Below, piece by piece: positions 36,171 through 58,174 of a stretch of 64,000 nucleotides of DNA. The stretch is from Eubacterium sp. (GTDB lineage: Bacteria; Bacillota; Clostridia; Christensenellales; CAG-314). Location: positions 55,596-119,595 of the forward strand of contig CAVJWC010000001.1 of assembly GCA_963653425.1 (NCBI GenBank), read 5' to 3'. The notes beneath the pieces are model-generated. The model had not been told where the DNA came from. It made no database searches and saw only the letters and a list, made by a program, of their open reading frames with translations. The first letter of the stretch is position 1. Each line of letters opens with the position of its first letter. The position numbers and the translations under genes are program-made.

Positions 36171-36306
36171 AAAGCGTAAAAAAATTACAAAATCATCTTA
36201 AAAATCATTGTGTTTTCCAGAAAATAGTGATAAACTATAAGGTAGCGGTGGTGCGCGTAAATTCAGACGCACTGCCTGATACAGCAATTAAGAGGTGAAA
36301 TTTTTT

Positions 36307-37347
36307 ATGGAAAAAATGGACGCGTTAGTCAAAAAATATCCGGCACCGGGTTTGGATCTTGAAAGAGTAGATATCCCCGTAGCAAAACCGGGCGAAGCTC
36401 TTTGCAAAATACATAAGACCGCTATCTGCGGAACGGACCTTCATATCTTCAACTGGGATCCGTGGAGTCAGCAGACTATAAAGACGCCTATGATCATAGG
36501 TCACGAATGGGTAGGCGAAATCGTTGAAATCAACGGTCAGAGCGAATACTTCAAAGTAGGCGATCAGGTAAGCGCAGAAGGTCACGTTACTTGCGGACAC
36601 TGCCGTAACTGCAGAGCCGGCAGAAAACATCTTTGCCCCACGGCTCAGGGTATCGGCGTAAACAGACCGGGTATTTTTGCGGAATACGCAGCTATTCCTC
36701 TTACCAACCTTTGGCACTGTGATCCTTCCATTCCCGAAGAAATGTACGCTATTTTCGATCCGTTCGGAAACGCAACTCACACCGCGCTTTCTTTCGTTAT
36801 GTCGGGTGAAGACGTTCTTATCACCGGCGCAGGTCCCATAGGTATTATGGCTGCCGCTATCTGCCGTCACGTAGGCGCAAGACGCGTAGTATTGACCGAC
36901 GTTACCGATTACAGACTCGAACTTGCAAAGGAAGTTTGCCCGACCATAAGAACAGTCAACACTCTCAAAGAGAAACTCGAAGACGTTATGAAAGAACAGG
37001 GTATCGTTGAAGGTTTCGACGTAGGTCTTGAAATGAGCGGTAGCGGTATAGCTCTCAATCAGATGATAGACGTTATGATCAACGGCGGTAAGATGGCTCT
37101 TCTCGGTATTCAGAAGCCCAACACCGTTATCGACTGGAACAAAGTCGTATTCAAAGGTCTTTTCATGAAGGGTATTTACGGCAGAGAAGTTTTCGAAACG
37201 TGGCACAAGATGACTGCTATGCTTCAGAGCGGACTTGACATCAGCAAGGTTATAACTCACAGATTCGACCACAAAGATTACCTTAAAGGTTTCGAACTTA
37301 TGAATACCGGTAAGAGCGGAAAGGTTATCCTTGACTGGACGAAATAA
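36307..37347 (+). CDS. tdh: L-threonine 3-dehydrogenase
   Basis: Zn-ADH fold: [16 protein letters not shown], Cys cluster [21 protein letters not shown]. Followed by kbl. The ATG at 36307 is preferred over the GTG at 36295. Confidence 0.9.
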
Positions 37348-37374
37348 GTAATATAATTTTCAGGAGATTTATAT

Positions 37375-38565
37375 ATGTATAAGACAGGTAAAGAAGTTTA
37401 CACCAAGATCCTCGAAGGTATCAAAAACGACGGTCTCTGGAAAGAAGAACGTATTATAACCACGCCGCAGTCTAACGTTATCAACACAACCAAGGCTGAT
37501 AACGTTATAAATTTCTGCGCAAACAACTATCTCGGTCTTGCCAACAACGCCGAAGTTATTGCCGCGGCAAAAGCAGGTTACGACAAGTACGGTTTCGGTA
37601 TGGGCAGCGTTCGTTTCATCTGCGGTACTCAGACCATTCATAAGGAACTCGAAGCTAAAATAAGCTCCTTCCTCGGCACCGACGACACTATCCTTTATTC
37701 CAGCTGTTTCGACGCAAACGGCGGTCTTTTCGAGACCATCACCACAGCCGAAGACGCTATCATCTCCGACGAACTCAACCACGCAAGCATCATCGACGGC
37801 GTAAGACTTGCCAAAGCTAAGAGATACAGATATAAGAACAGCAATATGGAAGACCTCGAAGCTCAGCTCAAAAAGGCTGACGAAGACGGTGCAAGACTTA
37901 AAGTTATCGTTACCGACGGCGTTTTCAGCATGGACGGTATCATCGCTAACCTTAAAGGTATTTGCGACCTTGCCGATAAGTACGACGCTATGGTTGTCGT
38001 AGACGACTCTCACGCAACCGGTTTTGTAGGCGAACACGGCAAAGGTACCGCTGAATATTGCGGAGTTATGGGCAGAGTAGACGTTATCACTTCTACCTTC
38101 GGTAAAGCTATGGGCGGCGCTTCCGGCGGATTCACCAGCGGCAGAAAGGAAATCATCGACATTCTCCGTCAGAGAAGCAGACCTTACCTTTTCTCCAACG
38201 CGCTTGCTCCTTCCATCTGCGCTGCAACCCTTAAAGTTCTCGAAATCGTTGAAAGAGACGACTCTCTGAGAAAGAAGGTTATGGAAAACGCTAAGTACTT
38301 CCGTAGCGAAATGGAAAAGAACGGTTTCGATCTTATCGGTAAAGACCACGCTATCGTTCCCGTAATGTTCTACGACAGCGTTCTTGCAGCTAAGGTTGCG
38401 GATTATATGCTCAATAAGGGCATTTACGTAACGGGCTTCTTCTATCCCGTAGTTCCTAACGGCAAGGCAAGAATCAGAACGCAGATGTCTGCGGCTCACA
38501 CCAAAGCCGACATCGATAAGTGCGTTCAGGCGTTTATCGACGCTAAGAAGGAAATCGGTTTCTAA
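37375..38565 (+). CDS. kbl: glycine C-acetyltransferase (2-amino-3-ketobutyrate CoA ligase)
   Basis: 396 aa alpha-oxoamine synthase: [23 protein letters not shown] (PLP Lys). Classic tdh-kbl pairing. Confidence 0.92.
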
Positions 38566-38590
38566 GAAAACAATAAATACCTGATTCAAA

Positions 38591-38621
38591 GGGGACGAAC
38601 GTTTTTCATTCGTCCCTTTTG
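38591..38621 (+). terminator. intrinsic terminator after kbl
   Basis: GGGACGAA-cgtttttca-TTCGTCCC followed by TTTT. Confidence 0.8.
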
Positions 38622-38633
38622 TCGAGAGGGGAT

Positions 38634-39965
38634 ATGAAATTAAGAGTAAAAAATACCGTGCTCATAGGCTTTTCGTTTTTATCGATTATGCTCCTTTGGG
38701 CAGGATACAACTGGTTCGTTCCGTTGTTTCTGGACGCAAGACTGGAAAAACTCTTTAACGAATGGCTGGGTAACGAAAGCCTGACCAAGTTTTGCGTAGG
38801 TGCGGTAATGGGACTTGACAACCTTCTCGCGTTGTTTATGATTCCCGTCGTATCGAAACTGTCGGACAGAACTGACACTAAATACGGCAAGCGTATGCCT
38901 TTCGTGTTTATAGGTTTGCCCGTTGCGGCAATCGCGTTTGCAGTGCTTCCCTTCGTTGCTTCGGGTTCGCTTATCGTTCTCGTCCTCGTGTTACTGTTTA
39001 TCATGGTAGCCATGAACTTCTATCGTTCGCCCGCCGTCGCGCTTATGCCCGACATAACCCCCAAACCTTTACGCGAAAGGGGAAACGCGATAATCAACAT
39101 TATGGGCGGAATAGGCACGGGACTCGGTTATGCAATCGTATTCGTTTGCAGCGATAAAATTCTCAACACGTCTTATTTCGTTCCGATAGAAATCATCTCG
39201 GCTATAATGTTCGTCTGTCTTGCCGTTCTTGCTCTGACCGTCAGAGAAAACGAATTCAAACGTCAGATGTTCGAAGACGTAAAATCTTATTGCGAAAGAA
39301 CGGGCGAAAACGTCAGCGATTTTATAGGAGAAGAGGACGAAGAGAGCAAAACCGCTTCCGAGAAGACTTCTTCGAGTAAAGCCGACAGAAAGAATATGTT
39401 CGTTATGCTCGCGGCTATTTTGTTTTTCTATATGTCTACCAACGCCGTCGAGTCTTTTATGTCCACGTACAGCAATCACTTTTTCGGAAGCAGTACGCTC
39501 GGATTGGTGCTTTTCGCCGCGCTTGCGGTAGGTAACTTTATTTTTATGCTGCCGTCTACGGTACTTGCGGAAAAAATCGGAAGAAGGAACGCTATGCTTA
39601 TAGGCAGTGCGATTATGACGCTTTCCGCGGCAAGTCTGATTTTCGTAAGGCAGTTCAGCTGGTTCCTTATGATTCCGTTTTTCCTGTTCGGAATAGGAAT
39701 GGCTGTTATGGTAACAAATATGTATCCAGCGATAGTAAGCTTTTGCAGTAAGGGCGATTACGCAAGGTTTACGGGCTACTATTATTCTTCGACCATGCTC
39801 GCCCAATCGATAACTCCGGCTCTTGCCGGATTCTTTATGGCTCCTTATTTCGGAGGCGGCACAGGAAACTTAATGCCGTATTCCACGGTATTTGCCTTTC
39901 TTTGCTTTATAGCTCTTTTATTCGTAAGCAAAGACGGCGATGAAAAAAACAGAGGTAGAAAATGA
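38634..39965 (+). CDS. MFS transporter
   Basis: About 12 TM with a central hydrophilic loop, and the motif LSDRTDTKYGKRMPF (MFS loop 2-3). The ATG at 38634 (RBS AGAGGGGA) is preferred because the track start overlaps the terminator. Confidence 0.85.
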   Translation: MKLRVKNTVLIGFSFLSIMLLWAGYNWFVPLFLDARLEKLFNEWLGNESLTKFCVGAVMGLDNLLALFMIPVVSKLSDRTDTKYGKRMPFVFIGLPVAAIAFAVLPFVASGSLIVLVLVLLFIMVAMNFYRSPAVALMPDITPKPLRERGNAIINIMGGIGTGLGYAIVFVCSDKILNTSYFVPIEIISAIMFVCLAVLALTVRENEFKRQMFEDVKSYCERTGENVSDFIGEEDEESKTASEKTSSSKADRKNMFVMLAAILFFYMSTNAVESFMSTYSNHFFGSSTLGLVLFAALAVGNFIFMLPSTVLAEKIGRRNAMLIGSAIMTLSAASLIFVRQFSWFLMIPFFLFGIGMAVMVTNMYPAIVSFCSKGDYARFTGYYYSSTMLAQSITPALAGFFMAPYFGGGTGNLMPYSTVFAFLCFIALLFVSKDGDEKNRGRK

Positions 39966-41176
39966 AAACTTTAGACAGATTTTTGAAATACGTTTCCGTA
40001 GATACGGAATCCGATCCCGACGCGGAGTGCTTCCCGAGTACCGCAAAACAGAAAAACCTTCTTGAACTGCTTAAAAACGAACTTATCGAAATGGGCGTTT
40101 CCAATGCGAGAATGGACGAAAACGGATACGTTTACGCAAGCATTCCCGCTAACTGCGAAGGTCGTCCCGCAATAGGTTTTCTTTCGCACGTAGATACGTC
40201 CAGCGCCGTAAGCGGAGCAAACGTCAAACCCGCTATCATAAAATACGAAGGCGGAGATATAGTTCTTAACAAAGAGAAAAATATCGTTATGAAGGCTGAA
40301 ACTTACGCTTCTCTTGCAGAAAACGCAGGCAAAGAACTCGTAGTTACCGACGGAACGACTCTTTTGGGCGCAGACGACAAAGCAGGCGTTGCCGAAATTA
40401 TGTCGATGGCGGAATTCTTTATTGAAAATCCCGACGTAAAACACGGCGAAATTCTTATATCTTTCACTCCCGACGAAGAAATCGGAAGAGGCGTGGAATT
40501 CTTCAATATGGACGAATTCAAAGCTGATTTTGCTTATACCGTCGACGGCGGAGCTTTGGGCGAAATCGAATACGAGAATTTCAACGCAGCCGCTATGACC
40601 CTCACGGCTCACGGCGTAAGCATTCACCCCGGAAGCGCGAAGAATATGATGATAAATGCGGTAGAAGTTCTTATGGACTTCCATTCGCTTCTGCCCGCGG
40701 AAATGCGTCCGCAGTACACAGAAAATTACGAAGGTTTCTATCATCTCGATAAGATTTCCGGTTCCGTTCAGGAAGCCAAGTCCGACTATATAATCCGCGA
40801 CCACGACAAAGCCAAGTTCGAAGCAAAGAAGAATTACGCGCTTAAAGCGGCTGAACTTATCAACGCAAAATACGGCGAAGGAACGCTCGATATTAAGATC
40901 AAGGATTCTTACTACAATATGAGAGAGTTCGTCGAAAAGCATATGGAACTCGTTCATAACGCGGAAAAAGCCATGGAAAACGTAGGCGTAACGCCCGTAG
41001 TCGTTCCCATAAGAGGCGGAACGGACGGCGCTCAGCTGACTTACAGAGGACTCGTTTGCCCCAATTTATGTACGGGCGGATACAATTTCCACGGAATATA
41101 CGAATATATCCCCGTAGCTTCCCTCGATAAAATAGTAAACATTCTTATCGAAATCGTTAAGATTTTTGCCGAATAA
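39962..41176 (+). CDS. pepT: peptidase T (tripeptide aminopeptidase)
   Basis: 404 aa M20B. N-terminal LDRFLKYVSVDTESD, then SHVDT, GADDKAG, PDEEIG motifs. Confidence 0.93.
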   Translation: MKTLDRFLKYVSVDTESDPDAECFPSTAKQKNLLELLKNELIEMGVSNARMDENGYVYASIPANCEGRPAIGFLSHVDTSSAVSGANVKPAIIKYEGGDIVLNKEKNIVMKAETYASLAENAGKELVVTDGTTLLGADDKAGVAEIMSMAEFFIENPDVKHGEILISFTPDEEIGRGVEFFNMDEFKADFAYTVDGGALGEIEYENFNAAAMTLTAHGVSIHPGSAKNMMINAVEVLMDFHSLLPAEMRPQYTENYEGFYHLDKISGSVQEAKSDYIIRDHDKAKFEAKKNYALKAAELINAKYGEGTLDIKIKDSYYNMREFVEKHMELVHNAEKAMENVGVTPVVVPIRGGTDGAQLTYRGLVCPNLCTGGYNFHGIYEYIPVASLDKIVNILIEIVKIFAE

Positions 41177-41191
41177 ATTTCAGGTAAATCC

Positions 41192-41219
41192 GAGGATGCC
41201 TTTTACGGCATCCTCTTTT
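41192..41219 (+). terminator. intrinsic terminator after pepT
   Basis: GAGGATGCC-ttttac-GGCATCCTC followed by TTTT. Confidence 0.85.
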
Positions 41220-41266
41220 CGGTATAGAGTTAAAACATAATCCCCCAAGAGAGGAGACAGCCCGTT

Positions 41267-42250
41267 ATGGACAAAAAGTTAAAAAACAGAGGCAAAATCA
41301 TAAAGACGATAAATCCATTTTACACAAAGAAGAAGTTTTCTTTCTGCAATAAGATTATGGATGCGTTTGCCGTAGGAAGAAAATTATGCGGAGGCGTGAA
41401 TTATCGTCAGGAATTTATAAGGCGCGAAGACGGAACTTTACTCAGAATGTGTATTTATTCGCCCGAAAAGCAAACCGACGACGCTGTAGGTCTTTTATGG
41501 CTTCACGGCGGAGGTTACGCGATAGGCGTTCCCGAGCAGGATATTCCCTTTATCAAAAACTTCGTCAGAAACTTTAATTGCGTGGTGGTTGCGCCCGATT
41601 ACATCCGTTCGGTAGAAGAACCTTTCCCTGCCGCAATTCTCGACTGTTACGACGCGCTCGTATGGCTTGCTTCAAACGCAAAGGACTTGGGAGTAAATCC
41701 AGAGAAAATCTTCGTCGGCGGAGAATCTGCGGGCGGAGGACTTACAGCCGCGCTTTCTCTTTACGCAAGAGATATGGGCGAGGTTAATATTGCCTTTCAG
41801 ATGCCTCTTTATCCTATGCTTGACGACCGCGAAACGCCTTCTTCGAGAAATAACGATATGCCCGTGTGGGATACAGAATCCAACAGGCTTGCCTGGAAAC
41901 TCTATCTCGGCGAAGATACGGAGAACGTTTCTCAGTACGCCGCGCCCGCAAGAGCAACCGATTACAGTCGGCTTCCGCCTACGCTGACCTACGTCGGAAC
42001 GCTCGAACCTTTCCGCGACGAAACGGTTACTTACGTCGAAAATCTCAGAAAAGCGGGAGTGGACGTGTTGTTTGAAATCTTCGACGAATGCTACCACGGA
42101 TTCGATATAGTCGCGCCGGGAAGCGAACCCGGGAAAAAAGCGAGAGAATTCTTACTTTCGGGCTTTTCTTTCGCTACCGAACACTATTCTGCTTCTCAAC
42201 CCGAAAAATCCAAGCCTGCTAAACCTCTTTTATCGAGGAAGAAGATTTAG
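41267..42250 (+). CDS. alpha/beta hydrolase (HSL-type esterase/lipase)
   Basis: 327 aa. HGGGY oxyanion motif, nucleophile elbow GESAGG, C-terminal His region (CYHGF). Confidence 0.85.
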   Translation: MDKKLKNRGKIIKTINPFYTKKKFSFCNKIMDAFAVGRKLCGGVNYRQEFIRREDGTLLRMCIYSPEKQTDDAVGLLWLHGGGYAIGVPEQDIPFIKNFVRNFNCVVVAPDYIRSVEEPFPAAILDCYDALVWLASNAKDLGVNPEKIFVGGESAGGGLTAALSLYARDMGEVNIAFQMPLYPMLDDRETPSSRNNDMPVWDTESNRLAWKLYLGEDTENVSQYAAPARATDYSRLPPTLTYVGTLEPFRDETVTYVENLRKAGVDVLFEIFDECYHGFDIVAPGSEPGKKAREFLLSGFSFATEHYSASQPEKSKPAKPLLSRKKI

Positions 42251-47224: not shown

Positions 47225-48112
47225 ATGACGAAATTTTTGGTTTCAACGGATTCCGGTTGCGATTTACCTATCGAGTTGCTTAACGAAAAAGGAATAGTTC
47301 CTTTCAAGCTTTTCTACGCAATCAACGGAGAACTCTTCGAAGATACTATGGAACACGCCGATTGCATAGAATTTTACGAAAAAATGAAGAACGGAGCCGT
47401 TCCCAAAACAAGTCAGGGAACGCAGGCGCAGTTCGAGAAGTTCTTTGAAAATCTTCTTAAAGAGAACTCGCAGATTCTTTACATAAGTCTGGGAAGCGCG
47501 GTTTCGGGTTCTTACGACAGCGCGACTGCCGCTGCCAAAAAGCTCGAAGAAGCCAATAAAGGAAGCAAAATCATAGTTATAGACTCGACGTTGTGTTCGA
47601 CGGGATACGGAATGCTTGCGCTTAAGGCGGCGGAACTCAGAGATTCGGGCTATTCCATAGATAAATGCGCGGCTGAAATAGAAAGGCTGAAAATTACCGT
47701 CAACACTTGGTACACAACCGACGAACTGCTTTATCTGCGCCGTTCGGGAAGATGTAGCAGAGCTGGACAGGTTATAGGAACGATTCTGAAAATCTGTCCT
47801 ATTCTCAACCTCGACGCCAAAGGCCATCTTATCGTTCAGGAGAGAGTAAGAGGCATCGACAAGACCATAAACAGAATTCACGCTATAATCAAAGAGAACG
47901 TGGTTGACGCGGAAAATCAGACTTTGTACGTTTGTCACAGCACCACGCCCGAAAAAGCGCGCGAATTCGGCGAAGGCTTAAAGAACGACGTCGGCTTCAA
48001 AGACGTTTATTACACGTATATAGGCGCGATTATCGGTTCTAACTGCGGTCCCGGACTCAGAGCCGCCTTTTATTACGGCAAACCTCGTACCATGGACGGC
48101 TACAACGATTAG
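47225..48112 (+). CDS. DegV family fatty-acid-binding protein
   Basis: 295 aa, N-terminal VSTDSGCDLP, ...TSQ..., typical DegV length. RBS AAAGGAGA. Confidence 0.9.
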   Translation: MTKFLVSTDSGCDLPIELLNEKGIVPFKLFYAINGELFEDTMEHADCIEFYEKMKNGAVPKTSQGTQAQFEKFFENLLKENSQILYISLGSAVSGSYDSATAAAKKLEEANKGSKIIVIDSTLCSTGYGMLALKAAELRDSGYSIDKCAAEIERLKITVNTWYTTDELLYLRRSGRCSRAGQVIGTILKICPILNLDAKGHLIVQERVRGIDKTINRIHAIIKENVVDAENQTLYVCHSTTPEKAREFGEGLKNDVGFKDVYYTYIGAIIGSNCGPGLRAAFYYGKPRTMDGYND

Positions 48113-48133
48113 TTATCGGGCGTTTCAACCCGT

Positions 48134-48192
48134 TTATTCCCTTAAATACCGGAGAAAACGAATTGTTCCCTCAAAATATCGGGGATAACGAA
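48134..48192. repeat. tandem 29/30-bp repeat downstream of degV
   Basis: TTATTCCCTTAAATACCGGAGAAAACGAA / TTGTTCCCTCAAAATATCGGGGATAACGAA. The ATCGGgGATAACGAA part resembles the B units at 12879-13003. Confidence 0.8.
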
Positions 48193-48257
48193 AGAAATAG
48201 CCTTTAATTATTTATAAATTCCGATAGTCTTGTTTTTTAGGAGAGAACAATTTTATT

Positions 48258-48299
48258 AAAAAACCCTGCGATTCAGAAAAATCGCGGGGGTTTGTTTTT
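48258..48299. terminator. bidirectional intrinsic terminator (degV / XRE gene)
   Basis: aaaaaaCCCTGCGATtcagaaaaATCGCGGGGgtttgttttt. Confidence 0.8.
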
Positions 48300-48310
48300 A
48301 TAAAAAAATT

Positions 48311-49030
48311 CTAAGACGGGTTGTTCGGCGTCGTTTTTAATCCGTCGTCTTTTTGGTCTTGTTTTTTGTCCGTAACCGCGTTTTCCGCGTGCGGAGCGTT
48401 TTCTTCCGTTTTCTGAGAATTCTTCTTTTTCCTCGGTTTGCGCTTCCTGAAAAGCGTATAAACGACAGCCATTGCTTCGAGCGGAATTATAAGGAAGAAG
48501 AGAGGCCAGAAGTTATATTGTATAAGTTGCAGGTAAGTCCCCGTAACCAGACCGCATATCACAAGCGAAAGCAGAATGGTATTAGCCCATTTTATATTTC
48601 GGTTGTTAATATTGTATTTGTAGACGATAACGGCGGAGGGGGGGACCGCCCAAACGAAAATCTGCCAGAACCGATAGCTTTTCATTATATCGAGTCCCAC
48701 GTAAATCAATACGGCGACAAGCCATACCGTAAGCACTGAAAGACACAACATCGCGATTCGGTTTACGGTGTCTTCCTGTTCGATAATATGAGCCGCGTCG
48801 GAGGATTTGACGACGGCGTTTTCCCCGATTAAATCGTCTACAGTAATATTGTAGAACTCGGCTATACGCGCCAGCGTACATATATCGGGAACGGTAGTTC
48901 CGTTTTCCCAACGGCTTATGCTTTTATCGGAGTATCCGATTTTCTCCGCAAGGTCGGTTTGTTTCAGATGATGAGCTTTTCTGAGTTCGACCAGATTTTT
49001 GGAGATGTTAGCTTCAATATTCGTATCCAT
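48311..49030 (-). CDS. membrane-anchored XRE-family HTH regulator
   Basis: 239 aa. N-terminal Cro/C1 HTH (LKQTDLAEKIGYSDKSISRWENG), then about 4 TM segments and a Lys-rich polar tail. Confidence 0.85.
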   Translation of the reverse strand: MDTNIEANISKNLVELRKAHHLKQTDLAEKIGYSDKSISRWENGTTVPDICTLARIAEFYNITVDDLIGENAVVKSSDAAHIIEQEDTVNRIAMLCLSVLTVWLVAVLIYVGLDIMKSYRFWQIFVWAVPPSAVIVYKYNINNRNIKWANTILLSLVICGLVTGTYLQLIQYNFWPLFFLIIPLEAMAVVYTLFRKRKPRKKKNSQKTEENAPHAENAVTDKKQDQKDDGLKTTPNNPS

Positions 49031-49243
49031 ACCTCAATGATACCCTATTTTTTAGGAAAAGTCAAGTAAAATCAGCATTATTCTCGTTATTCTCACAATA
49101 AGAGAGTGAAATTCTCGCAAAATAAGAGTGTGGTATATAAATCCGAAAGTGGTTTAGACGCGAAAATCGTTGCGCTTTTTGACGCAAAATGGTAAAATCA
49201 CCCGCGTGTCCGAACAAAAGACAAAGGACTACAGGAGGAAAAA

Positions 49244-51583
49244 ATGAATACGAAAAAGACATCGCTCGTAATGCTTGCAGTGCTTGTCGCTCTTATGTTG
49301 GTTTCCTTTTCAGGCTGCATAAGACCTGACGAACTCGACCTTCCGGAAGTTATTCCCGGAGAAGATTCCATAGTAAACGACCTCACCCTCACTCCCGATA
49401 AATACAGCGCTCGTATGAGCGTTTTTGCAGCTCTCGGCAAACTCGATTCCGCAAAAACTTACCTTTCCGAAAGTCACGGAAAAACCGTTGCCACCAAGGG
49501 CGTTATAACTTACACTCAGAACATCGAATGCAACTCCGTTAAAAACGGAAATGAATTTTACACGAAATCCGTTTCCGATTCCACGTTCGTGAACGTTTGT
49601 CACGAAGCTTTCGCAAAGAACGGCAAAGTCGCTTACAGAACGGACGGAGGAGCTATTCTCAACTCCACAAAGAGCGAATACGTTTCGGTTTACGGCGTAA
49701 CTCCCGACAAGCTTCTTTCCGGTCATATCTATAACTCGGATACCATTCTTTTCGCTCAGCTCGAATCTCAGGAAAACGGACTTTACACCTATAAGATCGT
49801 TCTCGATAAGACCACGGCTACGGCTCTTCTCGTTCGTCAGATGAAGATGCTCGGAAGTCTTTCTTCTCTTCCCGTTTTTAACGACAATATCGCCGTTACT
49901 CTCGTGATGAAAGAAGATTTTACTCCCGTAAGCCTGTCTTCCGTAAGCAAATACACCGTTGCGGGAACTCTTCTCGGAACTATGGACTGCACGGAAGAAA
50001 ACACCGTCCTTTTCGGTAACTTCAATTCGTCCGTTTCCGTTCCCGATACCAAGGATTTCAATTTGGCAATCAACGAAGAACCCGGTAAAATCGATTACTC
50101 CGACGAAGCTATAGACGAAAACGTTGCCGCCGTAATTTCCGCCGCTCTCAACGCCGACCTTAAAGGCGGTATCGTGCTTAACGGTTACGTGGACTACAAC
50201 GGCAAAAAGCTTCCCTTATGCATAAAGAACAAAGTCGATATCGACGGAATAATCGACGGAACGGTTGACTTCAACGACGCTTTCGAAGCTGAAATGTCCG
50301 TAGTTACTTATAGCGGAGAAATGTCCGTGCTTTATCACGAAGGCAAGTTCTATATGAACTTTATGGGCAACAAATACGCTTTCAGCACCAACGAAAAAGA
50401 CAGAGACGTAAACTTCGAAGAAATCGACATCAACGAATTCGTTACCGTTACTAAAAACGCAGAAAATCCGTCCGTTTACGATATTACGCTCAGCGACGAA
50501 TATATGAGCGCGGTTACGGAGCTTCTTTCGGCAGCAGGACTTCTCGGCGAAGAAGATTCTCTTGAACTCGGTTTGTCCTGTTACGTTTCGAACGGAAGAA
50601 TCGCTCAGATCGACGCGGCTTTCAAGACCGATATGACTGAAGAACTTTCGGCGCGTTTCTATATTTCCGATTGCATTTACGAAGAAGCGAACGAAGAAGA
50701 ACTGAGCGAATATCTCACTCGTATGGACTTCGCTTTGGACAGCACGATTAAGCTTCTCGGTTTCGACGCAAGCGGTAAAATCGCTCTTTCCTATAACACC
50801 GAAGAACCCGATCCCGCAAAGGCTTTCGAACTCAGCGCAAAATACGTTATAAATTCCAGAGAAAAGAACTTCTCGGAAGTTGCTGCTATCTTCACTAAGG
50901 ACATTCCCGAAATCGTTTCCGCTCTCGATGACGCAGAAACCATTGAAATTGCGGTTAAAGACGGATATACCTATCTTATCGCTTTCGACGCAGAAGGCAA
51001 TACAGTAGTGGCTGAAAATCTCGGCGCATTCTCCGATAAGCTTGCCGATCTGTTTGCTCTTATCAAGGGAGACGACAGCGAAGAAGAAGAAAGCACGCCC
51101 AGCCCCATGCTTAAAATCGCGCTCGATATTCTGAAAAAGACCTATATCATTTCCTTCGAATCGGACGCAACTTACGAGAACAAGCTTCTCAAAGCGCATT
51201 TCGGCGAAGAAATGACCAATCTGGTTCGTATGATGTGGAATCAGCTTCCCAGACTTATAGGTTTGTACGTTCCCGGAAACCAGACCGTTATCGACATCTT
51301 TGCAAACGAAGATTTCATTCAGCTTATGAAGTTCGATAAAGTATTCTGCGATTTAAGCGCGGGACTCAGAATTCCTTACGACGACGACGTAAATCTCGTC
51401 TGGAAGAACACCGAACTGTATCTTTCTCTTACCGTATTTGACGTAACTCGCAGCGAATACGACGAAGAAGAGGATTACGACGTAATCGACGTAGTTTATA
51501 TCGGCTTCACGCTTACCGAAGAAGTTCCTTCCGAAATTTTAAGCGAAGCTACTCTCGCGGCTATCGAAGCGATTGCTGACTAA
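49244..51583 (+). CDS. large hypothetical lipoprotein (779 aa)
   Basis: Signal peptide with lipobox VSFSGC. RBS AGGAGG. Acidic, no family recognised. Divergent from the XRE gene. Confidence 0.75.
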   Translation: MNTKKTSLVMLAVLVALMLVSFSGCIRPDELDLPEVIPGEDSIVNDLTLTPDKYSARMSVFAALGKLDSAKTYLSESHGKTVATKGVITYTQNIECNSVKNGNEFYTKSVSDSTFVNVCHEAFAKNGKVAYRTDGGAILNSTKSEYVSVYGVTPDKLLSGHIYNSDTILFAQLESQENGLYTYKIVLDKTTATALLVRQMKMLGSLSSLPVFNDNIAVTLVMKEDFTPVSLSSVSKYTVAGTLLGTMDCTEENTVLFGNFNSSVSVPDTKDFNLAINEEPGKIDYSDEAIDENVAAVISAALNADLKGGIVLNGYVDYNGKKLPLCIKNKVDIDGIIDGTVDFNDAFEAEMSVVTYSGEMSVLYHEGKFYMNFMGNKYAFSTNEKDRDVNFEEIDINEFVTVTKNAENPSVYDITLSDEYMSAVTELLSAAGLLGEEDSLELGLSCYVSNGRIAQIDAAFKTDMTEELSARFYISDCIYEEANEEELSEYLTRMDFALDSTIKLLGFDASGKIALSYNTEEPDPAKAFELSAKYVINSREKNFSEVAAIFTKDIPEIVSALDDAETIEIAVKDGYTYLIAFDAEGNTVVAENLGAFSDKLADLFALIKGDDSEEEESTPSPMLKIALDILKKTYIISFESDATYENKLLKAHFGEEMTNLVRMMWNQLPRLIGLYVPGNQTVIDIFANEDFIQLMKFDKVFCDLSAGLRIPYDDDVNLVWKNTELYLSLTVFDVTRSEYDEEEDYDVIDVVYIGFTLTEEVPSEILSEATLAAIEAIAD

Positions 51584-51604
51584 AACGTTATAACTTAAAC
51601 GAAT

Positions 51605-51633
51605 GCTCCGCGGAAATCTCTGCGGAGCTTTTG
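51605..51633 (+). terminator. intrinsic terminator
   Basis: GCTCCGC-ggaaatctct-GCGGAGC followed by TTTT. Confidence 0.8.
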
Positions 51634-51687
51634 TATACGCAAAAATCGTTTATTTTATAAAAATACGCAAAATATAAGTTCAGAAAC

Positions 51688-51716
51688 TTGCTAAGAAATC
51701 CCGTAAGTTATATAAT
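51688..51716 (+). promoter_or_regulatory. sigmaA-type promoter for the phosphatase gene
   Basis: TTGCTA (51688-51693), 17 nt spacer, TATAAT (51711-51716). It overlaps the upstream candidate starts, which argues for the ATG at 51739. Confidence 0.55.
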
Positions 51717-51738
51717 GAAAGAAAAAACGGAGCAGAGT

Positions 51739-52902
51739 ATGGAAAGTTCATTGACTTTAAGTATAAAAAAGCGTTCGCGCATTCTGATTATAACGGCGGT
51801 AATTCTCGTTATTCTTGCGTCGTCTTGTTTACTCTCGGCGTGTTACAAGAAGAAAGTCGTTGCCGTTAAAAACGTAGCCATAGGCGAAGACGTTAAATTC
51901 AACGCCGCCATCGTGGGTATTGCGATCGAAGACTTCAACGACAGAGGCTTTGCTTTGGGAGACAGTTGCGACGTCAGATTCAGCAACGGATACGAAATGA
52001 CGGACGTGCCTTATTATAACGGCTATTACGTTCAGAACGGTCAGCCCGTTATCGTGGCTTACCCGTCCGACAAGTTTATCAAAATCACCCTCAATAACGT
52101 CGGAATATGGGACGTGGCAGAGCTTAACGACAGCTGTACGGTAGATATTACGCTTAATACCGCAAAGAAATATTTAGCCACTCAGGAAGCTTTGGGACAG
52201 AGTTATTCGCTTGACAGAAATTCGTACGACAGCGACGAGTCCTTTGCTAATTTCAGGGCGATTTCGGGCGGGAACCTCAAAGAAACTTTGATTTTCAGGG
52301 GAGCGAGTCCCGTTGACAACAGCAGAAATCGCGCAAGATACGTAGACGCGTTATTGGAAATCCATGAAATAAAGTGCGTAATCGACCTTGCCGACTCGTT
52401 TGAAAATATAGCCGAGTATACGGCGCTCGACGACTTCTTTTCGGAATACACGCTTTCGCTTCTTGAAAAGGGCGACGTCGCGCTTTTGTCCATGAGTTCG
52501 AGTTACGGTTCGGACGCTTACAAACGAAGCCTCGTTAAAGGTTTCGAGTTTATGCTCAGCCACGACGGACCTTATTATATCCATTGTATGGAAGGTAAGG
52601 ACCGTACGGGTTTCGTCTGCGCGCTTATAGAAGCTCTTGCGGGCGCAAGTTACGAGGAAATGCGTAACGATTATATGATGACTTACGAAAATTACTATAA
52701 GATTTTCCCGGATTCGAACCCCGAAAAATACGACGCCGTAGTTAAGCTTTACTTCGACTCGTTTATGAGATGTATTTCGGGTAAAGACGACCTGTCCGCG
52801 GTAACCCAAGACGATTACGTTTCGGGCGCAAAGAGTTATCTTATGAGCGGAGGAATGAGCGAAGAGAACGTAAACCTGTTTATCGGGCTGATTTCGAAGT
52901 GA
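51739..52902 (+). CDS. lipoprotein tyrosine-phosphatase-like protein (CX5R, Y_phosphatase3-like) with extra N-terminal beta-rich domain
   Basis: Lipobox LLSAC. C-terminal half carries HCMEGKDRTG (the CX5R P-loop). The ATG at 51739 has ACGGAG 7 nt upstream. Confidence 0.75.
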   Translation: MESSLTLSIKKRSRILIITAVILVILASSCLLSACYKKKVVAVKNVAIGEDVKFNAAIVGIAIEDFNDRGFALGDSCDVRFSNGYEMTDVPYYNGYYVQNGQPVIVAYPSDKFIKITLNNVGIWDVAELNDSCTVDITLNTAKKYLATQEALGQSYSLDRNSYDSDESFANFRAISGGNLKETLIFRGASPVDNSRNRARYVDALLEIHEIKCVIDLADSFENIAEYTALDDFFSEYTLSLLEKGDVALLSMSSSYGSDAYKRSLVKGFEFMLSHDGPYYIHCMEGKDRTGFVCALIEALAGASYEEMRNDYMMTYENYYKIFPDSNPEKYDAVVKLYFDSFMRCISGKDDLSAVTQDDYVSGAKSYLMSGGMSEENVNLFIGLISK

Positions 52903-53020
52903 GCATAGCCGATACGAAAAAACAAATACAAAAAACAAACGAACGAAGAAAAACACAAGAAGAACGAAGAAAAATACGAAAAAGCAAAGAAAATACAAAC
53001 TAAAAGATACAAAAGAGCAA

Positions 53021-53059
53021 AGAAAAAGTCCCTGAGTTAACTTAACTCAAGGACTTTTT
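53021..53059. terminator. bidirectional hairpin terminator abutting the tRNA 3' end
   Basis: aaaaaGTCCCTGAGTTAAcTTAACTCAAGGACttttt, with one C-A mismatch. Confidence 0.7.
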
Positions 53060-53143
53060 TGGTGCGGCGAGTGGGACTTGAACCCACACGGGGTTACCAT
53101 GCGCCCCTTAAACGCACGCGTCTGCCGATTCCGCCATCGCCGC
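53060..53143 (-). tRNA. tRNA-Leu (class II), anticodon AAG by hand folding
   Basis: 84 nt with encoded CCA. Acceptor GCGGCGA/UCGCCGC, D-arm GCGGAAUCGGCAGACGC, anticodon stem UGCGU/GCGCA, loop UUAAGGG, 12-nt variable region, T-arm GUGGG-UUCAAGU-CCCAC. It aligns with E. coli tRNA-Leu(CAG) as I recall that sequence. Confidence 0.85.
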
Positions 53144-53155
53144 CCGAGTGACACC

Positions 53156-53184
53156 ATTATACAACCATTATATCCCGTTGTCAA
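53156..53184 (-). promoter_or_regulatory. consensus sigmaA promoter of the tRNA-Leu gene
   Basis: Minus strand: TTGACA (53184-53179), 17 nt spacer, TATAAT (53161-53156), 12 nt before the tRNA 5' end. Confidence 0.7.
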
Positions 53185-53318
53185 GCGTTTTTTTAATTTT
53201 ATACGCAATCTGAGCCTCTTTGTTTTCGCTTATTGTCAAAGGTTTTCTTAGATGCGAAAAAACCGTTTATCGTTCTTTTAACGGCTGAATTTTCGTTCTT
53301 TTTACGGTTTTCTACGCT

Positions 53319-54095
53319 TTATTTCCGAATAAGATTTTCAAAAGACGCTTCGAACCAGACGACGGGGTAAGCGAAAACGAATCCGATTTTTTCCGCAAGT
53401 TTAATGCTCGGCTCGTTTATGTCAACTATATGTACGAAAGGAACGTTGCCTCTCTTAAGAACCTGCTTTATAAGGAATTTCGAAGCGTTTACGGCAAGAT
53501 TTTTGTGCCTGAACTGAGGTTTCGTGAACATCGCTCCCATAGAACCGTCTTCGTGAACCAGCGACCAGCAGGCAATTTCGCCGTCGATATAGGTTGCGCC
53601 CGACGGGCGGGTGGATATTTCGCTTTTAATCTTTTCGAGACTGTGTTCGTTGCGGTAAGTATAGAAGTAATCGATGGTTTCCGCGCAATCGGGATCTATC
53701 GCCCGCACGTTATCGGGAAGATCGGACAGGTCTATGTCTTTTTCGGGATAAAGGTAGAGGTAACAGTCGTCGTGAAGAAGTTCTTCGTCGGTTTTATCGG
53801 CAAGCGTAAAGAGAACTTCCGCCACGTCTTTTCTTACGCCCGAGAAAAAGATAAGTCCGTTCGGCGCGAACACTTCGGTTGCGGCTTCGACTATGGAATT
53901 CCGGGAATAAGCGTTTATAAAAAACGTATCTGTATTCCGCTTTCTCATAACCACGCAGTCGGTTTCGCCGTCGTTTACCCATATATCGGGCAGAGGATTG
54001 TTTTCGAGAAAGCCAAGCATGTTAAGACTGTCGGTTTTATGTTTTTCAAGAAACTCTTTTGCCGTATAAGTTTCGTTTTCGGTAAGTTTTTTCAT
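53319..54095 (-). CDS. GNAT family N-acetyltransferase
   Basis: 258 aa. The C-terminal half (...MFTKPQFRHKNLAVNASKFLIKQVLKRGNVPFVHIVDINEPSIKLAEKIGF) looks like a GNAT acetyl-CoA-binding core. RBS ACGGAG. Confidence 0.7.
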   Translation of the reverse strand: MKKLTENETYTAKEFLEKHKTDSLNMLGFLENNPLPDIWVNDGETDCVVMRKRNTDTFFINAYSRNSIVEAATEVFAPNGLIFFSGVRKDVAEVLFTLADKTDEELLHDDCYLYLYPEKDIDLSDLPDNVRAIDPDCAETIDYFYTYRNEHSLEKIKSEISTRPSGATYIDGEIACWSLVHEDGSMGAMFTKPQFRHKNLAVNASKFLIKQVLKRGNVPFVHIVDINEPSIKLAEKIGFVFAYPVVWFEASFENLIRK

Positions 54096-54317
54096 AAAAT
54101 TCTCCGTATTTTCGCCGTTATCTTATAGCATAAAGCCGTGTTTTTGTCAAGACTTTTAAGTGCGCGTTACCTTCTTTATCGCCGATATTTTTACGGGAAT
54201 AAATCGTTTTTTTGTTTTTACCGTGCTTAAAATCGACGCAACACGCCAATAATCCTTTTATATCGACGGAGCTTTCGTTCGTCGGTACCGTATAATAAAA
54301 ACACTGCGGAGGTACTT

Positions 54318-54626
54318 ATGGAAATATCGTATAAAAAGGACAGAAGCGTTCTTATTATGTACTTCAAAGGCGAACTCGACGAATGTGCTTCTTACGCCGC
54401 CAAACAGACCATGGAAGCCATTATATTCGCCAATAGTTTCAGAACTCTGATTCTCGACCTTAAAGATCTGACTTTTATGGACAGTACGGGAATAGGCGTT
54501 CTTATAGGACGATACAAACAGCTGAAAATTCGCGGAATAAGCGCGTATAGCGTCAACGTAGGCGAAAACGCCGATAAAATATTCAGAATGTCGGGATTAT
54601 ACGATATATTCCCCCTTCTCGATTAA
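54318..54626 (+). CDS. spoIIAA: anti-sigma-F factor antagonist SpoIIAA (STAS)
   Basis: 102 aa STAS domain with DLKDLTFMDSTGIGVLIG (phosphorylatable Ser). First gene of the spoIIA operon. Confidence 0.93.
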   Translation: MEISYKKDRSVLIMYFKGELDECASYAAKQTMEAIIFANSFRTLILDLKDLTFMDSTGIGVLIGRYKQLKIRGISAYSVNVGENADKIFRMSGLYDIFPLLD

Positions 54627-54641
54627 AGCGGAGAAAAGAAG

Positions 54642-55085
54642 ATGAAATCAGACGAAATGACGTTAAAAATCAATGCAAATCCACTTAACGAAAGCTTTGC
54701 GAGAAGTACGGTAGCGGCGTTTTGCGCGAGACTTAATCCTACCGTCGAGGAAATAGGCGATATAAAAACCGCCGTCAGCGAAGCCGTTACAAACTGCGTG
54801 GTTCACGCCTACGATTATGCGGGCGGAGAAATAGAAATAACCACTCTTCTGTGTAAAGGGTGCGTTTTTATTACCGTTTCGGACAAAGGAAAGGGCATAA
54901 AAGACGTGGAAGCCGCTATGCAACCCTTTTATACCACGGGTAATTCCGACGAGCGTTCGGGAATGGGATTTACCGTCATGGCGGCTTTTACCGACGAACT
55001 TACCGTGCGTTCCGAACCTCAGAAGGGTACGGTCGTAAAGATGAAAAAATACCTCAAATCGCCTGCGGAGAAGGAGCGATGCTGA
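54642..55085 (+). CDS. spoIIAB: anti-sigma-F factor SpoIIAB (Ser kinase)
   Basis: 147 aa HATPase_c: EAVTNCVVHAY, DKGKGI, GMGFTVM. Confidence 0.93.
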   Translation: MKSDEMTLKINANPLNESFARSTVAAFCARLNPTVEEIGDIKTAVSEAVTNCVVHAYDYAGGEIEITTLLCKGCVFITVSDKGKGIKDVEAAMQPFYTTGNSDERSGMGFTVMAAFTDELTVRSEPQKGTVVKMKKYLKSPAEKERC

Positions 55086-55804
55086 ATCACGACGAAACCA
55101 TGGAGCTTTTATATAAAGCCAAAGACGGAAGCGAAGAAGCCAAAGAAAAGCTTATTTCCGAGAACAGACCGCTTATTAAAAGTCTTATAAGGAGATACGC
55201 GGGACGGGGAGTGGAATACGAAGACCTTATGCAGATAGCTTCGGTAGGTCTTCTTAAAGCCGTTTCCAACTTCAACGGCGACTATAACGTAAGATTTTCC
55301 ACCTACGCCGTTCCTATGATTCTCGGCGAGGTCAAAAGGTTCATCCGCGACGACGGAAGCATAAAGGTTTCACGGTCGGTAAAAACCCTTTCGTGCAGAA
55401 TTTACCGTTATATCGAACGTTGCCGTATGAACGGAGAAAAAGATCCTTCGATTTCCGAAATCGCCGAATATTTCGGAGTAACGGAAAACGACGTCGTTTT
55501 TGCGATGGATTCGAGGAAAGAACCCGTTTCGCTGTTCGAAAAAACCGACGACGGCGACGAACAGGGAACTTCCCTTATCGACAGACTGGGAGACGGTTTC
55601 CGCGAAGACAAGCTCATAAATAAAGTTATATTAAAATCCCTAATAGAAGAGCTTTCACCGAGAGAAAAGAAAATAATTCTTCTTCGGTTTTACAGAGATA
55701 TGACGCAAAGCGAAATCGCGCGTCTTCTCGGAGTATCTCAGGTTCAGGTATCCAGACTGGAAAACAAAATAATAGAAAAACTTCGCTCGGGAATGAAAGA
55801 ATGA
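55079..55804 (+). CDS. sigF: sporulation sigma factor SigF
   Basis: 241 aa. Sigma-70 regions 2-4 (YEDLMQIASVGLLKAVSNF, FSTYAVPMILGEVKRFIRD, MTQSEIARLLGVSQVQVSRLE). Overlaps the spoIIAB stop. Confidence 0.93.
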   Translation: MLNHDETMELLYKAKDGSEEAKEKLISENRPLIKSLIRRYAGRGVEYEDLMQIASVGLLKAVSNFNGDYNVRFSTYAVPMILGEVKRFIRDDGSIKVSRSVKTLSCRIYRYIERCRMNGEKDPSISEIAEYFGVTENDVVFAMDSRKEPVSLFEKTDDGDEQGTSLIDRLGDGFREDKLINKVILKSLIEELSPREKKIILLRFYRDMTQSEIARLLGVSQVQVSRLENKIIEKLRSGMKE

Positions 55805-55811
55805 ATGCAAA

Positions 55812-55846
55812 CCGCCTGATAAAAGACGATCGGGCGGTTTATTTTT
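55812..55846 (+). terminator. intrinsic terminator after sigF
   Basis: CCGCCTGAT-aaaagacg-ATCGGGCGG followed by TTTATTTTT. Confidence 0.75.
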
Positions 55847-55865
55847 CGTCCGTTTGCCCATAATA
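55837..55865 (+). promoter_or_regulatory. candidate sigmaG-type promoter for spoVA genes
   Basis: GTTTA (55837-55841), 17 nt spacer, CATAATA (55859-55865). The -10 matches the sigmaG CATxxTA pattern as I recall it. Confidence 0.35.
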
Positions 55866-56000
55866 ATAAAAACGAAAAAAGCGGAGGAAAAGGCGTGAAA
55901 GAAACTTATAAAGAAAGAACGAATATATACAGGGATTTCGAGAAAAACGCGGACGTCAGGGAAACCCGGTATAAAGAGCGCGCTGAAAAGGATATAAGAA

Positions 56001-56564
56001 ATGAAAGATAAAGCTCGGCTCGGAAAACGCGGAACGAATAGGGAGGACGATAAAGGCAGATACAAAAACGCTTGCGTAAAAGGGAAAGACGACAGCGTTA
56101 AAACGCGGGGAAGGGATTTCCCCGTCATAAACGAAGACAACTACAAAGACTACGTTTCAGCGGTTTCGCCCAAGTCGAGGCATTTCAGGAACATAGTCTG
56201 GGCTTTTTTAGTCGGCGGAAGCATTTGTCTTTTGGGACAGGCAATAATCGAAATCTTCGTTTCGTTCGGATTTCCCCGTGAAGATTCCCAAGGCTTTGCG
56301 TCGTGTATTCTGGTAATTCTTGCCGCAATTGCCACGGGTGCTGGCGTTTACGACAGGCTGGGAAGATTTGCCGGCGCAGGTTCTACCATTCCCATAACGG
56401 GCTTTTCCAACGCCGTTGTCGCGCCCGCTCTCGAATATCGTTGCGAAGGAATGATATACGGCATAGGAACGAGAATGTTTTTCGTTGCCGGTCCCGTAAT
56501 CGTAAACGGAGTCACGGCAGCCATTATCGTTGCGCTTATAAAGTGGCTTTTTCGCGGACTTTAA
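56001..56564 (+). CDS. spoVAC: SpoVAC with about 40-aa basic N-terminal extension
   Basis: The core ...NIVWAFLVGGSICLLGQ...GAGSTIPITGFSNAV... is canonical SpoVAC. The only in-frame ATG/GTG/TTG upstream of the core is the ATG at 56001. Confidence 0.85.
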   Translation: MKDKARLGKRGTNREDDKGRYKNACVKGKDDSVKTRGRDFPVINEDNYKDYVSAVSPKSRHFRNIVWAFLVGGSICLLGQAIIEIFVSFGFPREDSQGFASCILVILAAIATGAGVYDRLGRFAGAGSTIPITGFSNAVVAPALEYRCEGMIYGIGTRMFFVAGPVIVNGVTAAIIVALIKWLFRGL

Positions 56565-56575
56565 TCGGAGGTAAG

Positions 56576-57610
56576 ATGTCAGGGAGCAGAGGACAGTGTT
56601 TGTTTTTTAACGGCGTTTATATAAAGTGCGGATATACCGTCGCGGGGCCCAAGGAGCAGGAAGGAAGACTTCACGACAGATTCGACGAAGCCCTCAGCGA
56701 CGACAGGTGCGGAGAAGCTTCCTTTGAAAAAGCCGAACGCCGTATGTTCAGGGACGCCATAAACGGAGTTGCAAAAAAATCGGGTATAGATATAGACGGC
56801 GTTCAGACGGTCGTAGGCGGAGACCTTCTGAATCAGATAATTTCCACGTCTTTTGCCGTAAAGGGATTGAATTCGACTTTTATAGGTCTGTATAACGCCT
56901 GCGCAACCTTTGCGGAAAGCCTTCTTGTAGGCGGAAGTCTGATTTCGGGCGGATTTAAGGACAACGTCGTTTGTATCGCGGGAAGTCATTTTTCAACGGC
57001 TGAAAGACAGTATCGTTACCCGTTGGAACTCGGCGTTCTTCGTTCGCCCGAAAGTCAGTGGACGGCAACGGGTGTCGGCGCGACTTTACTCGTTAAAGGC
57101 AAAGAAAGAGCCAACGAAAAAGGACGGAAGATTCTCGTTAAAGGCGGAGCTTTCGGCAAAGTTGTGGATTACGGCATAACCGACGTAAACAACATGGGAG
57201 CGGCTATGGCGCCGGCTGCCGCGGATACGCTTATACGTTTTTTTTCCGAAACGGGAACCAAGGCTTGCGATTACGATCTTATTGCGACGGGCGACCTCGG
57301 GTTTCTCGGAATGGAAATAATGATGGACCTTATGGAGAAAAAAGGTTATCCCTTAGGCGAAGAGTATATGGATTGCGGAGCTTCGCTTTATTACGAAAAA
57401 CAACAAACCTATCAGGGAGGAAGCGGAGCCGCGGCTTCGGCTATGGTTTTTAACGGCACGCTTCTCGACAGGCTTTATAAAGGAAGCTTTTCCGATATGC
57501 TTCTCGTGGGAACGGGCGCGCTTATGTCACCGCTTACCTGTTTTCAGGGCGAGAACATCCCCGTTATCGCGCATATCGTGCATATAGGCGCGGACGAATC
57601 TCCGTCGTAA
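56576..57610 (+). CDS. spoVAD: SpoVAD
   Basis: 344 aa thiolase-like fold (...YTVAGPKEQEGRLHDRFDE...SFEKAERRM...). The ATG at 56576 has GGAGGT upstream and follows the spoVAC stop. The longer track ORF from 56303 overlaps spoVAC out of frame. Confidence 0.9.
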   Translation: MSGSRGQCLFFNGVYIKCGYTVAGPKEQEGRLHDRFDEALSDDRCGEASFEKAERRMFRDAINGVAKKSGIDIDGVQTVVGGDLLNQIISTSFAVKGLNSTFIGLYNACATFAESLLVGGSLISGGFKDNVVCIAGSHFSTAERQYRYPLELGVLRSPESQWTATGVGATLLVKGKERANEKGRKILVKGGAFGKVVDYGITDVNNMGAAMAPAAADTLIRFFSETGTKACDYDLIATGDLGFLGMEIMMDLMEKKGYPLGEEYMDCGASLYYEKQQTYQGGSGAAASAMVFNGTLLDRLYKGSFSDMLLVGTGALMSPLTCFQGENIPVIAHIVHIGADESPS

Positions 57611-57814
57611 CGCATCGGTTTCCTTTGTCGCAAAGCCTTAGCGAAAGCCTTTTTGTCTACCCGTTCGCTAAAACTCTTTCAGAGGCGAACGTAAGCCCGT
57701 TGTCTGACGCATTCAAAGCTATTTCCATTAACTAAACGGAGCGTAAAGTCTTCGCGAAAAACGACGAACTCAGCTCAGAAACGAAAACTGTTTGTAATTA
57801 CGAGGAAAACGGTA

Positions 57815-58174
57815 ATGATATATCTCAAAGCTTTTTTAATAGGCGGACTTATCTCTGCCATCGGACAAATTTTAATAAATCTCACTAAACTCACCAACGG
57901 GAAAATTCTCGTTATTTTTCTCGTAAGCGGATGTATTCTCGAAGGCTTAGGACTTTACCAGCCTCTCGTAAAATGGGCGGGAGCGGGGGCGTCCGTGCCT
58001 ATTTCGGGGTTCGGAAGCAGTCTCGTCAAAGGTGCGTACGAAGGAATGGAAAAGGAGGGCGTTTTCGGTCTTATAAAGGGCGGACTTTCGGCAACTTCGG
58101 CGGGCGTGTCGGTAGCGATTTTATTCGGTTACGCCGCGGCTCTTATTTTCAAGCCCAAAACCAAAGCCAATTGA
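57815..58174 (+). CDS. spoVAE: SpoVAE(b)
   Basis: 119 aa, FLIGGLISAIGQ...GAGASVPISGFGSSLVKG (paralogous to SpoVAC). Confidence 0.9.
   Translation: MIYLKAFLIGGLISAIGQILINLTKLTNGKILVIFLVSGCILEGLGLYQPLVKWAGAGASVPISGFGSSLVKGAYEGMEKEGVFGLIKGGLSATSAGVSVAILFGYAAALIFKPKTKAN

Follow-up and report, generated by a model that had tools for sequence, protein, structure and literature searches.

Introduction

Can a member of the Clostridia read leucine codons with a tRNA whose anticodon begins with adenosine? The question is raised by a 64-kb stretch of DNA (hereafter the window), in which an initial annotation made from the sequence alone had proposed a tRNA-Leu gene with the anticodon AAG, remarking that, outside tRNA-Arg(ACG), A at position 34 is uncommon among bacterial tRNAs and on record for some Firmicutes. 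The literature agrees with that remark (bioRxiv 10.64898/2026.05.15.725136; PMC13249217). Leu-tRNA(AAG) is the commonest ANN tRNA other than ACG in GtRNAdb and is fixed in Lactobacillus, Lactococcus and Streptococcus, and the known carriers have genomes of 60-70% AT (bioRxiv 10.64898/2026.05.15.725136). The class Bacilli accounts for 'almost all' such genes, Mycoplasma and Prochlorococcus for a few (PMC13249217), and scattered cases of tRNA-Leu(AAG) are recorded from Mollicutes, Prochlorococcus and Proteobacteria (bioRxiv 10.64898/2026.05.15.725136; PMC13249217). No paper turned up when the literature was searched for Leu-AAG jointly with Clostridia, and Clostridia are not mentioned in any of the papers found.

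Results

The window encodes a single tRNA, a leucine tRNA with anticodon AAG

The only tRNA that ARAGORN finds in the 64 kb is a tRNA-Leu with anticodon aag, precisely where the gene had been placed by hand folding (Table 1; the minus-strand sequence of the gene is GCGGCGAUGGCGGAAUCGGCAGACGCGUGCGUUUAAGGGGCGCAUGGUAACCCCGUGUGGGUUCAAGUCCCACUCGCCGCACCA). Infernal aligns the same sequence to the full length of the Rfam model RF00005 (positions 1-71) with a score of 47.4 bits (E = 3e-9, gathering score 29), obtained on 401 searched bases. The anticodon arm in this alignment reads UGCGU / UUAAGGG / GCGCA, and the sequence and alignment together give a perfect 7-bp acceptor stem followed by A73 and an encoded CCA, a D stem of 3 bp with GG in the D-loop, and a long variable arm. 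The tRNA aligns with other Leu isoacceptors from end to end. Both programs agree with the hand fold and with its AAG register, and we conclude that this is a real tRNA-Leu gene with anticodon AAG.

A scan of the whole window (1-64000) with Rfam at the gathering threshold listed no match. Since the same tRNA scores 47.4 bits in the 401-base search, we take this miss to be a filter effect of the large search and not evidence against the tRNA. Type II tRNAs can be missed by a whole-window gathering scan of this kind.

A second register, with anticodon UAA, had been considered and dismissed in the initial annotation, and we reject it as well. It is used by neither ARAGORN nor Infernal, and it is excluded by the homologous loops of GAG and CAG tRNAs (UUGAGGG and UUCAGGG), which it would turn into UGA and UCA, meaningless for Leu tRNAs.

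Table 1. Positions of the tRNA gene, its signals and other features of the window.
Feature	Position	Strand	Details
tRNA-Leu(AAG) gene	53060-53143	-	Type II, 84 nt with encoded CCA, A73 discriminator; ARAGORN and Rfam RF00005
Anticodon A34-A35-G36	53107-53109	-	A34 = 53109; register from Infernal alignment
Anticodon loop UUAAGGG	53105-53111	-	U32 U33 A34 A35 G36 G37 G38
Promoter, sigma-70/SigA type, TTGACA-17-TATAAT	53156-53184	-	12/12 match
Intrinsic terminator hairpin, then T-rich stretch	53023-53059	-	17 pairs; starts directly after encoded CCA
A-rich degenerate tandem repeat	52912-52999		Periods of ~12, 13 and 21 nt; units such as AAAAAACAAAAGAACGAAG
6-kb block with a counterpart in UMGS692	36171-42192		11-17 kb before the tRNA
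ORF, 435 aa	56303-57610		Mechanical start placed too far upstream; the SpoVAD product called in relatives has 344 aa
ORF, 1748 aa	58691-63937	-	Without assignment
ORF, 779 aa	49244-51583	+	No Pfam match
ORF, 519 aa	7891-9450	+	No Pfam match
ORF, 399 aa	9539-10738	+	No Pfam match

The gene has its own promoter and terminator

The perfect consensus promoter and the hairpin terminator that had been described on either side of the gene are both borne out (Table 1). Twelve nucleotides separate the -10 hexamer from the 5' end of the mature tRNA, and perfect matches to TTGACA-17-TATAAT occur three times in the 64-kb window against none expected from shuffles. The terminator hairpin folds with -21.6 kcal/mol (z = -5.1), and none of 200 shuffled sequences folds as well. 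Judged by these signals, the tRNA-Leu(AAG) gene is probably strongly expressed.

The tRNA is almost invariant in diverged surroundings

At least four lineages share both this tRNA and its position downstream of the GNAT-spoIIA-sigF genes. Among conspecific assemblies, three carry the whole tRNA (L001, L003 and L208) and one is cut inside it (L002), with A34 present in all four; the sister species UMGS692 has the gene as well, and it is carried by ten of ten further contigs of that lineage, which come from separate gut metagenome assemblies and MAGs. All 84 nucleotides of the tRNA are identical in the window, a Logan contig (L194) and a JGI contig (L195), and 83 of 84 are shared with UMGS692 (L004), the single difference being one base of the variable loop. 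The GNAT protein encoded next to it is 69% identical to that of the window in UMGS692, 66% in L194 and 50% in L195. A34 is thus fixed across species, with AAG found in four lineages whose GNAT identities are 100, 69, 66 and 50%. In the four-lineage alignment the DNA flanking the tRNA on both sides is largely unalignable; the -35 TTGAC and -10 TATAAT elements are in register in all four, the spacer and surroundings vary, and each lineage has its own, different hairpin after the CCA. Because the tRNA is near-invariant and the promoter hexamers are kept amid diverged flanks and a GNAT that falls to 50% identity, the comparison shows that A34 is conserved under purifying selection and belongs neither to an error nor to a decaying gene.

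It could be argued that the gene is not a working AAG tRNA at all, but a pseudogene or a misregistered UAA tRNA, or that position 34 was misread in sequencing or misassembled. The minimum-free-energy fold of the bare sequence is indeed not a cloverleaf and has a z-score of only -1.07 against shuffles, although tRNAs commonly fold in this way when the tertiary context is left out. Such a reading would have to account for A34 in the window, in L001-L003 and L208, in ten UMGS692-lineage contigs and in two more lineages, for an invariant sequence amid diverged flanks, for a consensus promoter and terminator, and for two programs that choose the same register where the UAA frame yields UGA or UCA in the homologues. 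Its probability is negligible, and we regard it as effectively refuted by the conservation.

UMGS929 (L005), with a SigF of 66% identity, keeps the GNAT-spoIIA genes and has no tRNA at this site, and more distant relatives have instead a Pro-Met-Asp-Phe-Thr-Tyr tRNA cluster near the spoIIA genes.

The host is a spore-forming member of the gut Clostridia

Pfam matches in the window include FakA, Rho, LexA, HflX, a XerC/D-type recombinase, Spo0A, GlmM, GlmS and MatE transporters. Beside the tRNA are genes for a DegV protein, an HTH regulator, a 779-aa protein, a Y_phosphatase3 protein and a GNAT/FR47 acetyltransferase, and beyond the acetyltransferase lie spoIIAA, spoIIAB, sigF and spoVAC/AD/AEB. 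In a scan with one genome per species, the closest SigF relatives are those of uncultured Clostridiales UMGS692 (81%) and then UMGS929 (66%), followed at 50-59% by Clostridia and Christensenellaceae-type MAGs, Ca. Limihabitans (placed under Clostridia by NCBI) and Pumilibacter; the contigs that bear the locus are gut metagenome assemblies. The SigF relatives, the presence of spo0A together with spoIIA-sigF and spoVA, and the gut-metagenome origin of the contigs identify the host as an uncultured spore-forming member of the gut Clostridia, and not of the Bacilli or Lactobacillales.

The GC content is even across the region, at about 45%, and a megablast search of phage and plasmid collections found no match to positions 48000-58000. 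The context of the tRNA is chromosomal and vertically inherited.

A rearrangement breakpoint coincides with the 3' end of the tRNA

The initial annotation described the gene as solitary. This is true of the window and of the MAG GCA_963637745.1, but not of L003, a strain of 99.4% identity, nor of the sister species UMGS692, in both of which a tRNA-Leu(CAG) lies about 70 nt downstream of the AAG gene. The window and L003 are homologous exactly as far as the 3' end of the tRNA (53059) and no further. L003:1-131 continues into the tRNA-Leu(CAG); the window, past 53059, has another hairpin, followed by an A-rich tract and the Y_phosphatase3 gene, and GCA_963637745.1 is arranged in the same way. 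Two Logan assemblies (L001, L002) break at or inside the tRNA. The end of homology at 53059, the contig ends and the two strain arrangements together show that the tRNA 3' end is a strain-level rearrangement breakpoint.

Several further observations concern this region. The A-rich tandem repeat listed in Table 1 lies in the interval that separates the tRNA terminator from the stop codon of the Y_phosphatase3 ORF. The 6-kb block that precedes the tRNA in the window is found directly after spoVA in UMGS692 (L004:10099-16110), with 81% identity and in the same orientation, indicating a larger rearrangement around the locus. On the same reference contig, the tRNA-Leu(CAG) at L004:4748-4790 (-), which in other contigs comes after the AAG gene, is cut after the anticodon loop and has T for C at position 34 (UUUAGG), a structure resembling the scar of an insertion or of recombination; about 130 nt further on lies another tRNA-Leu(CAG), intact and slightly different in its body (L004:4570-4656, -). 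ARAGORN also reports a 94-nt 'tRNA-Lys(ttt)' (L004:4766-4859; L199-L207:5044-5137) that runs from the end of the AAG tRNA through the terminator hairpin into the start of the CAG tRNA, and this is almost certainly a false call.

The tRNA body resembles tRNA-Leu(GAG)

To find related bodies, metagenomes were searched with the pattern GGYAGACGCGNNNNNTTNAGGGNNNNNTGG, which describes a Leu-type D-arm and anticodon-arm frame with any base at position 34; the pattern is too general, and at least 120 stretches matched it. Among the 120 matches listed, position 34 is G in 89 (UUGAGGG), C in 30 (UUCAGGG) and A in one. The closest bodies among the matches listed are those of tRNA-Leu(GAG), the nearest agreeing in 71 of 83 aligned columns (86%). 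These share with the window tRNA the U31-G39 pair, U32, G38, the UUNAGGG loop, the short variable arm and the T arm, and differ from it in having G at position 34. None of the matches listed has the GNAT-spoIIA synteny, and an orthologous ancestor with G34 was not found among them. The one A34 match (L123:576-656, on the 1.6-kb JGI contig Ga0265595_1044065) is an unrelated tRNA-Leu(AAG) with a different body and no encoded CCA.

The tRNA-Leu(AAG) of S. pyogenes, the sequence of which was taken from the oligonucleotide table of PMC11472039, is 74% identical to that of the window. Its T arm is the same and its acceptor stem differs at one base pair; the anticodon stem is different, the loop is CUAAGGA (with C32 and A38 where the window tRNA has U and G) and the variable arm is longer. 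Within the Bacilli, GAG is found in all Bacillales and several Lactobacillales families, so that AAG arose within the Lactobacillales (PMC13249217). Given this origin, and given 86% identity to GAG bodies compared with 74% to the streptococcal AAG tRNA, the tRNA of the Clostridia likely arose by an independent G34A change of a GAG-type tRNA.

If instead the gene had been acquired horizontally from the Lactobacillales, from a phage or from another mobile element, and not from the lineage's own tRNA-Leu(GAG), one might point to the breakpoint between strains at its 3' end, and to the shared T arm and near-identical acceptor stem. The anticodon arm, positions 32 and 38 and the variable arm are, however, GAG-like and not streptococcal (86% as against 74%), and the host is outside the Lactobacillales clade of AAG carriers. 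Moreover, positions 48000-58000 have no similarity to phages or plasmids, the GC content of the locus is uniform, and the same GNAT-spoIIA context recurs in four lineages down to a GNAT identity of 50%. Horizontal gain is accordingly very improbable.

The tRNA matches the commonest leucine codon

Codon use was counted over 18,500 codons from 50 long ORFs of the window that do not overlap. Leucine is encoded by CUU in 47% of cases, CUC in 23%, CUA in 1%, CUG in 14%, UUA in 8% and UUG in 8%. The anticodon AAG therefore matches the commonest Leu codon, CUU, and if this tRNA is the only reader of CUY it would serve the 70% of Leu codons that are CUU or CUC. The CUU+CUC fraction is 0.63-0.70 in the two AAG-bearing species, compared with 0.34-0.46 in the next SigF relatives (L005-L010). 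Such an enrichment together with AAG parallels a report from the Lactobacillales (PMC13249217). High CUU+CUC and low CUA are also seen at other mid-GC Clostridia loci, so the pattern is suggestive only and not diagnostic. Avoidance of CUA was likewise considered as a marker of inosine at position 34 (I34) and rejected, many mid-GC Clostridia loci also having 1-3% CUA.

The bias in A-ending codons is marked and uneven in the window. CCA, ACA, UCA and CUA each make up at most 6% of their boxes, and GUA, GCA and GGA are common; AUA accounts for 42% of Ile codons in the long ORFs.

A34 is likely to be deaminated to inosine

The initial annotation had offered two ways in which such a tRNA could function, a TadA of widened range that deaminates A34, or decoding by unmodified A34. 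These are the right alternatives, and the first has been shown experimentally in S. pyogenes, whose tRNA-Leu(AAG) is fully I34 and is modified by its own TadA and not by that of E. coli (PMC11472039). I34 in tRNA-Leu(AAG) is also recorded for S. mutans and with the TadA of S. pneumoniae (PMC13249217), and for Oenococcus (PMC8072771). In the window tRNA the loop core U33-A34-A35-G36-G37 is identical to that of the streptococcal substrate, and UUAAGGG fits six of the seven positions of the S. pyogenes TadA consensus YUAMGRA (32-38; PMC11472039), with G38 in place of A38. Pairing between U32 and G38 could narrow the loop.

From these comparisons a pathway can be proposed. The gene would be transcribed from its own consensus housekeeping promoter and transcription would stop at its own terminator; RNase P would trim the 5' end, the CCA being already encoded; and LeuRS would charge the tRNA through A73 and its tertiary shape. 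LeuRS does not read the anticodon. Most probably, TadA would then deaminate A34 to inosine, and the resulting tRNA-Leu(IAG) would read CUU and CUC, and CUA weakly. A change from G34 to A34 without deamination would lose efficient reading of CUC. Deamination would need an adapted TadA, since E. coli TadA rejects tRNA-Leu(AAG). A search for the HAE...PCxxC motif found no tadA-like ORF in the 64-kb window.

Alternatively, the tRNA could be functional with A34 left unmodified, reading CUU well and the other CUN codons poorly or by four-way wobble, with CUC read by another isoacceptor such as a co-resident GAG or U34 tRNA. Unmodified A34 tRNAs do exist in bacteria, tRNA-Leu(AAG) is not a substrate of the E. 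coli enzyme (PMC11472039), the loop has G38 where the editing consensus has A38, and CUU by itself makes up 47% of Leu codons. On the other hand, every bacterial tRNA-Leu(AAG) tested so far carries I34, the loop core is the one proven as a substrate in streptococci, CUC ranks second among Leu codons (23%), and in the reported lineages AAG replaces GAG and is not added to it. An unmodified A34 is therefore the less probable of the two, although a serious minority possibility, and deamination of A34 to I34 by TadA is the likely outcome.

Taken together, we consider that the locus probably encodes a functional, chromosomal, CUY-reading Leu tRNA of gut Clostridia in which the G34 of GAG has been replaced by A34, with conversion to I34 by TadA as the most probable fate of that base. 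By analogy with the reported lineages, we infer that AAG replaces tRNA-Leu(GAG) and does not coexist with it.

Discussion

The closest known counterpart is the tRNA-Leu(AAG) of the Lactobacillales, which is converted to IAG and occurs in Streptococcus, Lactococcus and the Lactobacillaceae including Oenococcus and Leuconostoc. It has the same amino acid, anticodon and loop core as the tRNA described here, and in both cases the gene is on a Bacillota chromosome, CUU and CUC are heavily used and the origin is presumed to be a G34A change from tRNA-Leu(GAG). The two differ in their hosts, a spore-forming member of the Clostridia with 45% GC here and Bacilli with 60-70% AT there.

Two other groups of A34 tRNAs invite comparison. 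The universal bacterial TadA substrate, tRNA-Arg(ACG), which becomes ICG, likewise has A34 in a four-codon box, and the pattern of that box, in which I34 serves U, C and (A) and a C34 tRNA serves G, is expected here too. Codon use in the two boxes is similar, CGA making up 8% of CGN codons and CUA 0.8% of CUN. In contrast to the C35 and A37 of tRNA-Arg(ACG), the present tRNA has A35 and G37, and canonical TadA, as in E. coli, rejects this type of loop. The unmodified A34 tRNAs, Mycoplasma tRNA-Thr(AGU) and the tRNA-Thr and tRNA-Ser of Oenococcus, are also non-Arg A34 tRNAs of four-codon boxes in Bacillota-related organisms; theirs, however, are reduced or AT-rich genomes, whereas the box read here has abundant CUC (23%). 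A C-ending codon such as CUC would be read poorly by unmodified A34 (PMC11066159).

New here are the host class, Clostridia, the mid-GC genome and, probably, an independent origin. It is an evenly balanced proposition that this clade of gut Clostridia has come independently to the inosine decoding of leucine, through its own G34A change and a convergently broadened TadA. The CUN box might then be read by IAG and CAG only, since CUA makes up 1% of Leu codons and a CAG tRNA adjoins the AAG gene in relatives.

The finding leaves unchanged the known picture of how such tRNAs work. In the Lactobacillales, tRNA-Leu(AAG/IAG) has been linked to a broader range of TadA substrates, a greater diversity of mRNA editing and the recoding of leucine codons across the genome (PMC11472039, PMC13249217), and whether the phenomenon extends beyond that order has been asked explicitly (PMC13249217). 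A case in the Clostridia offers an independent test of whether TadA broadens convergently and whether CUU and CUC become enriched after the anticodon switch. If inosine decoding of leucine has indeed been reinvented here, this clade would be a second natural replicate of what is seen in the Lactobacillales, phylogenetically separate from them and with a mid-GC genome, in which one could test whether the shift to CUU and CUC is driven by I34 in tRNA-Leu.
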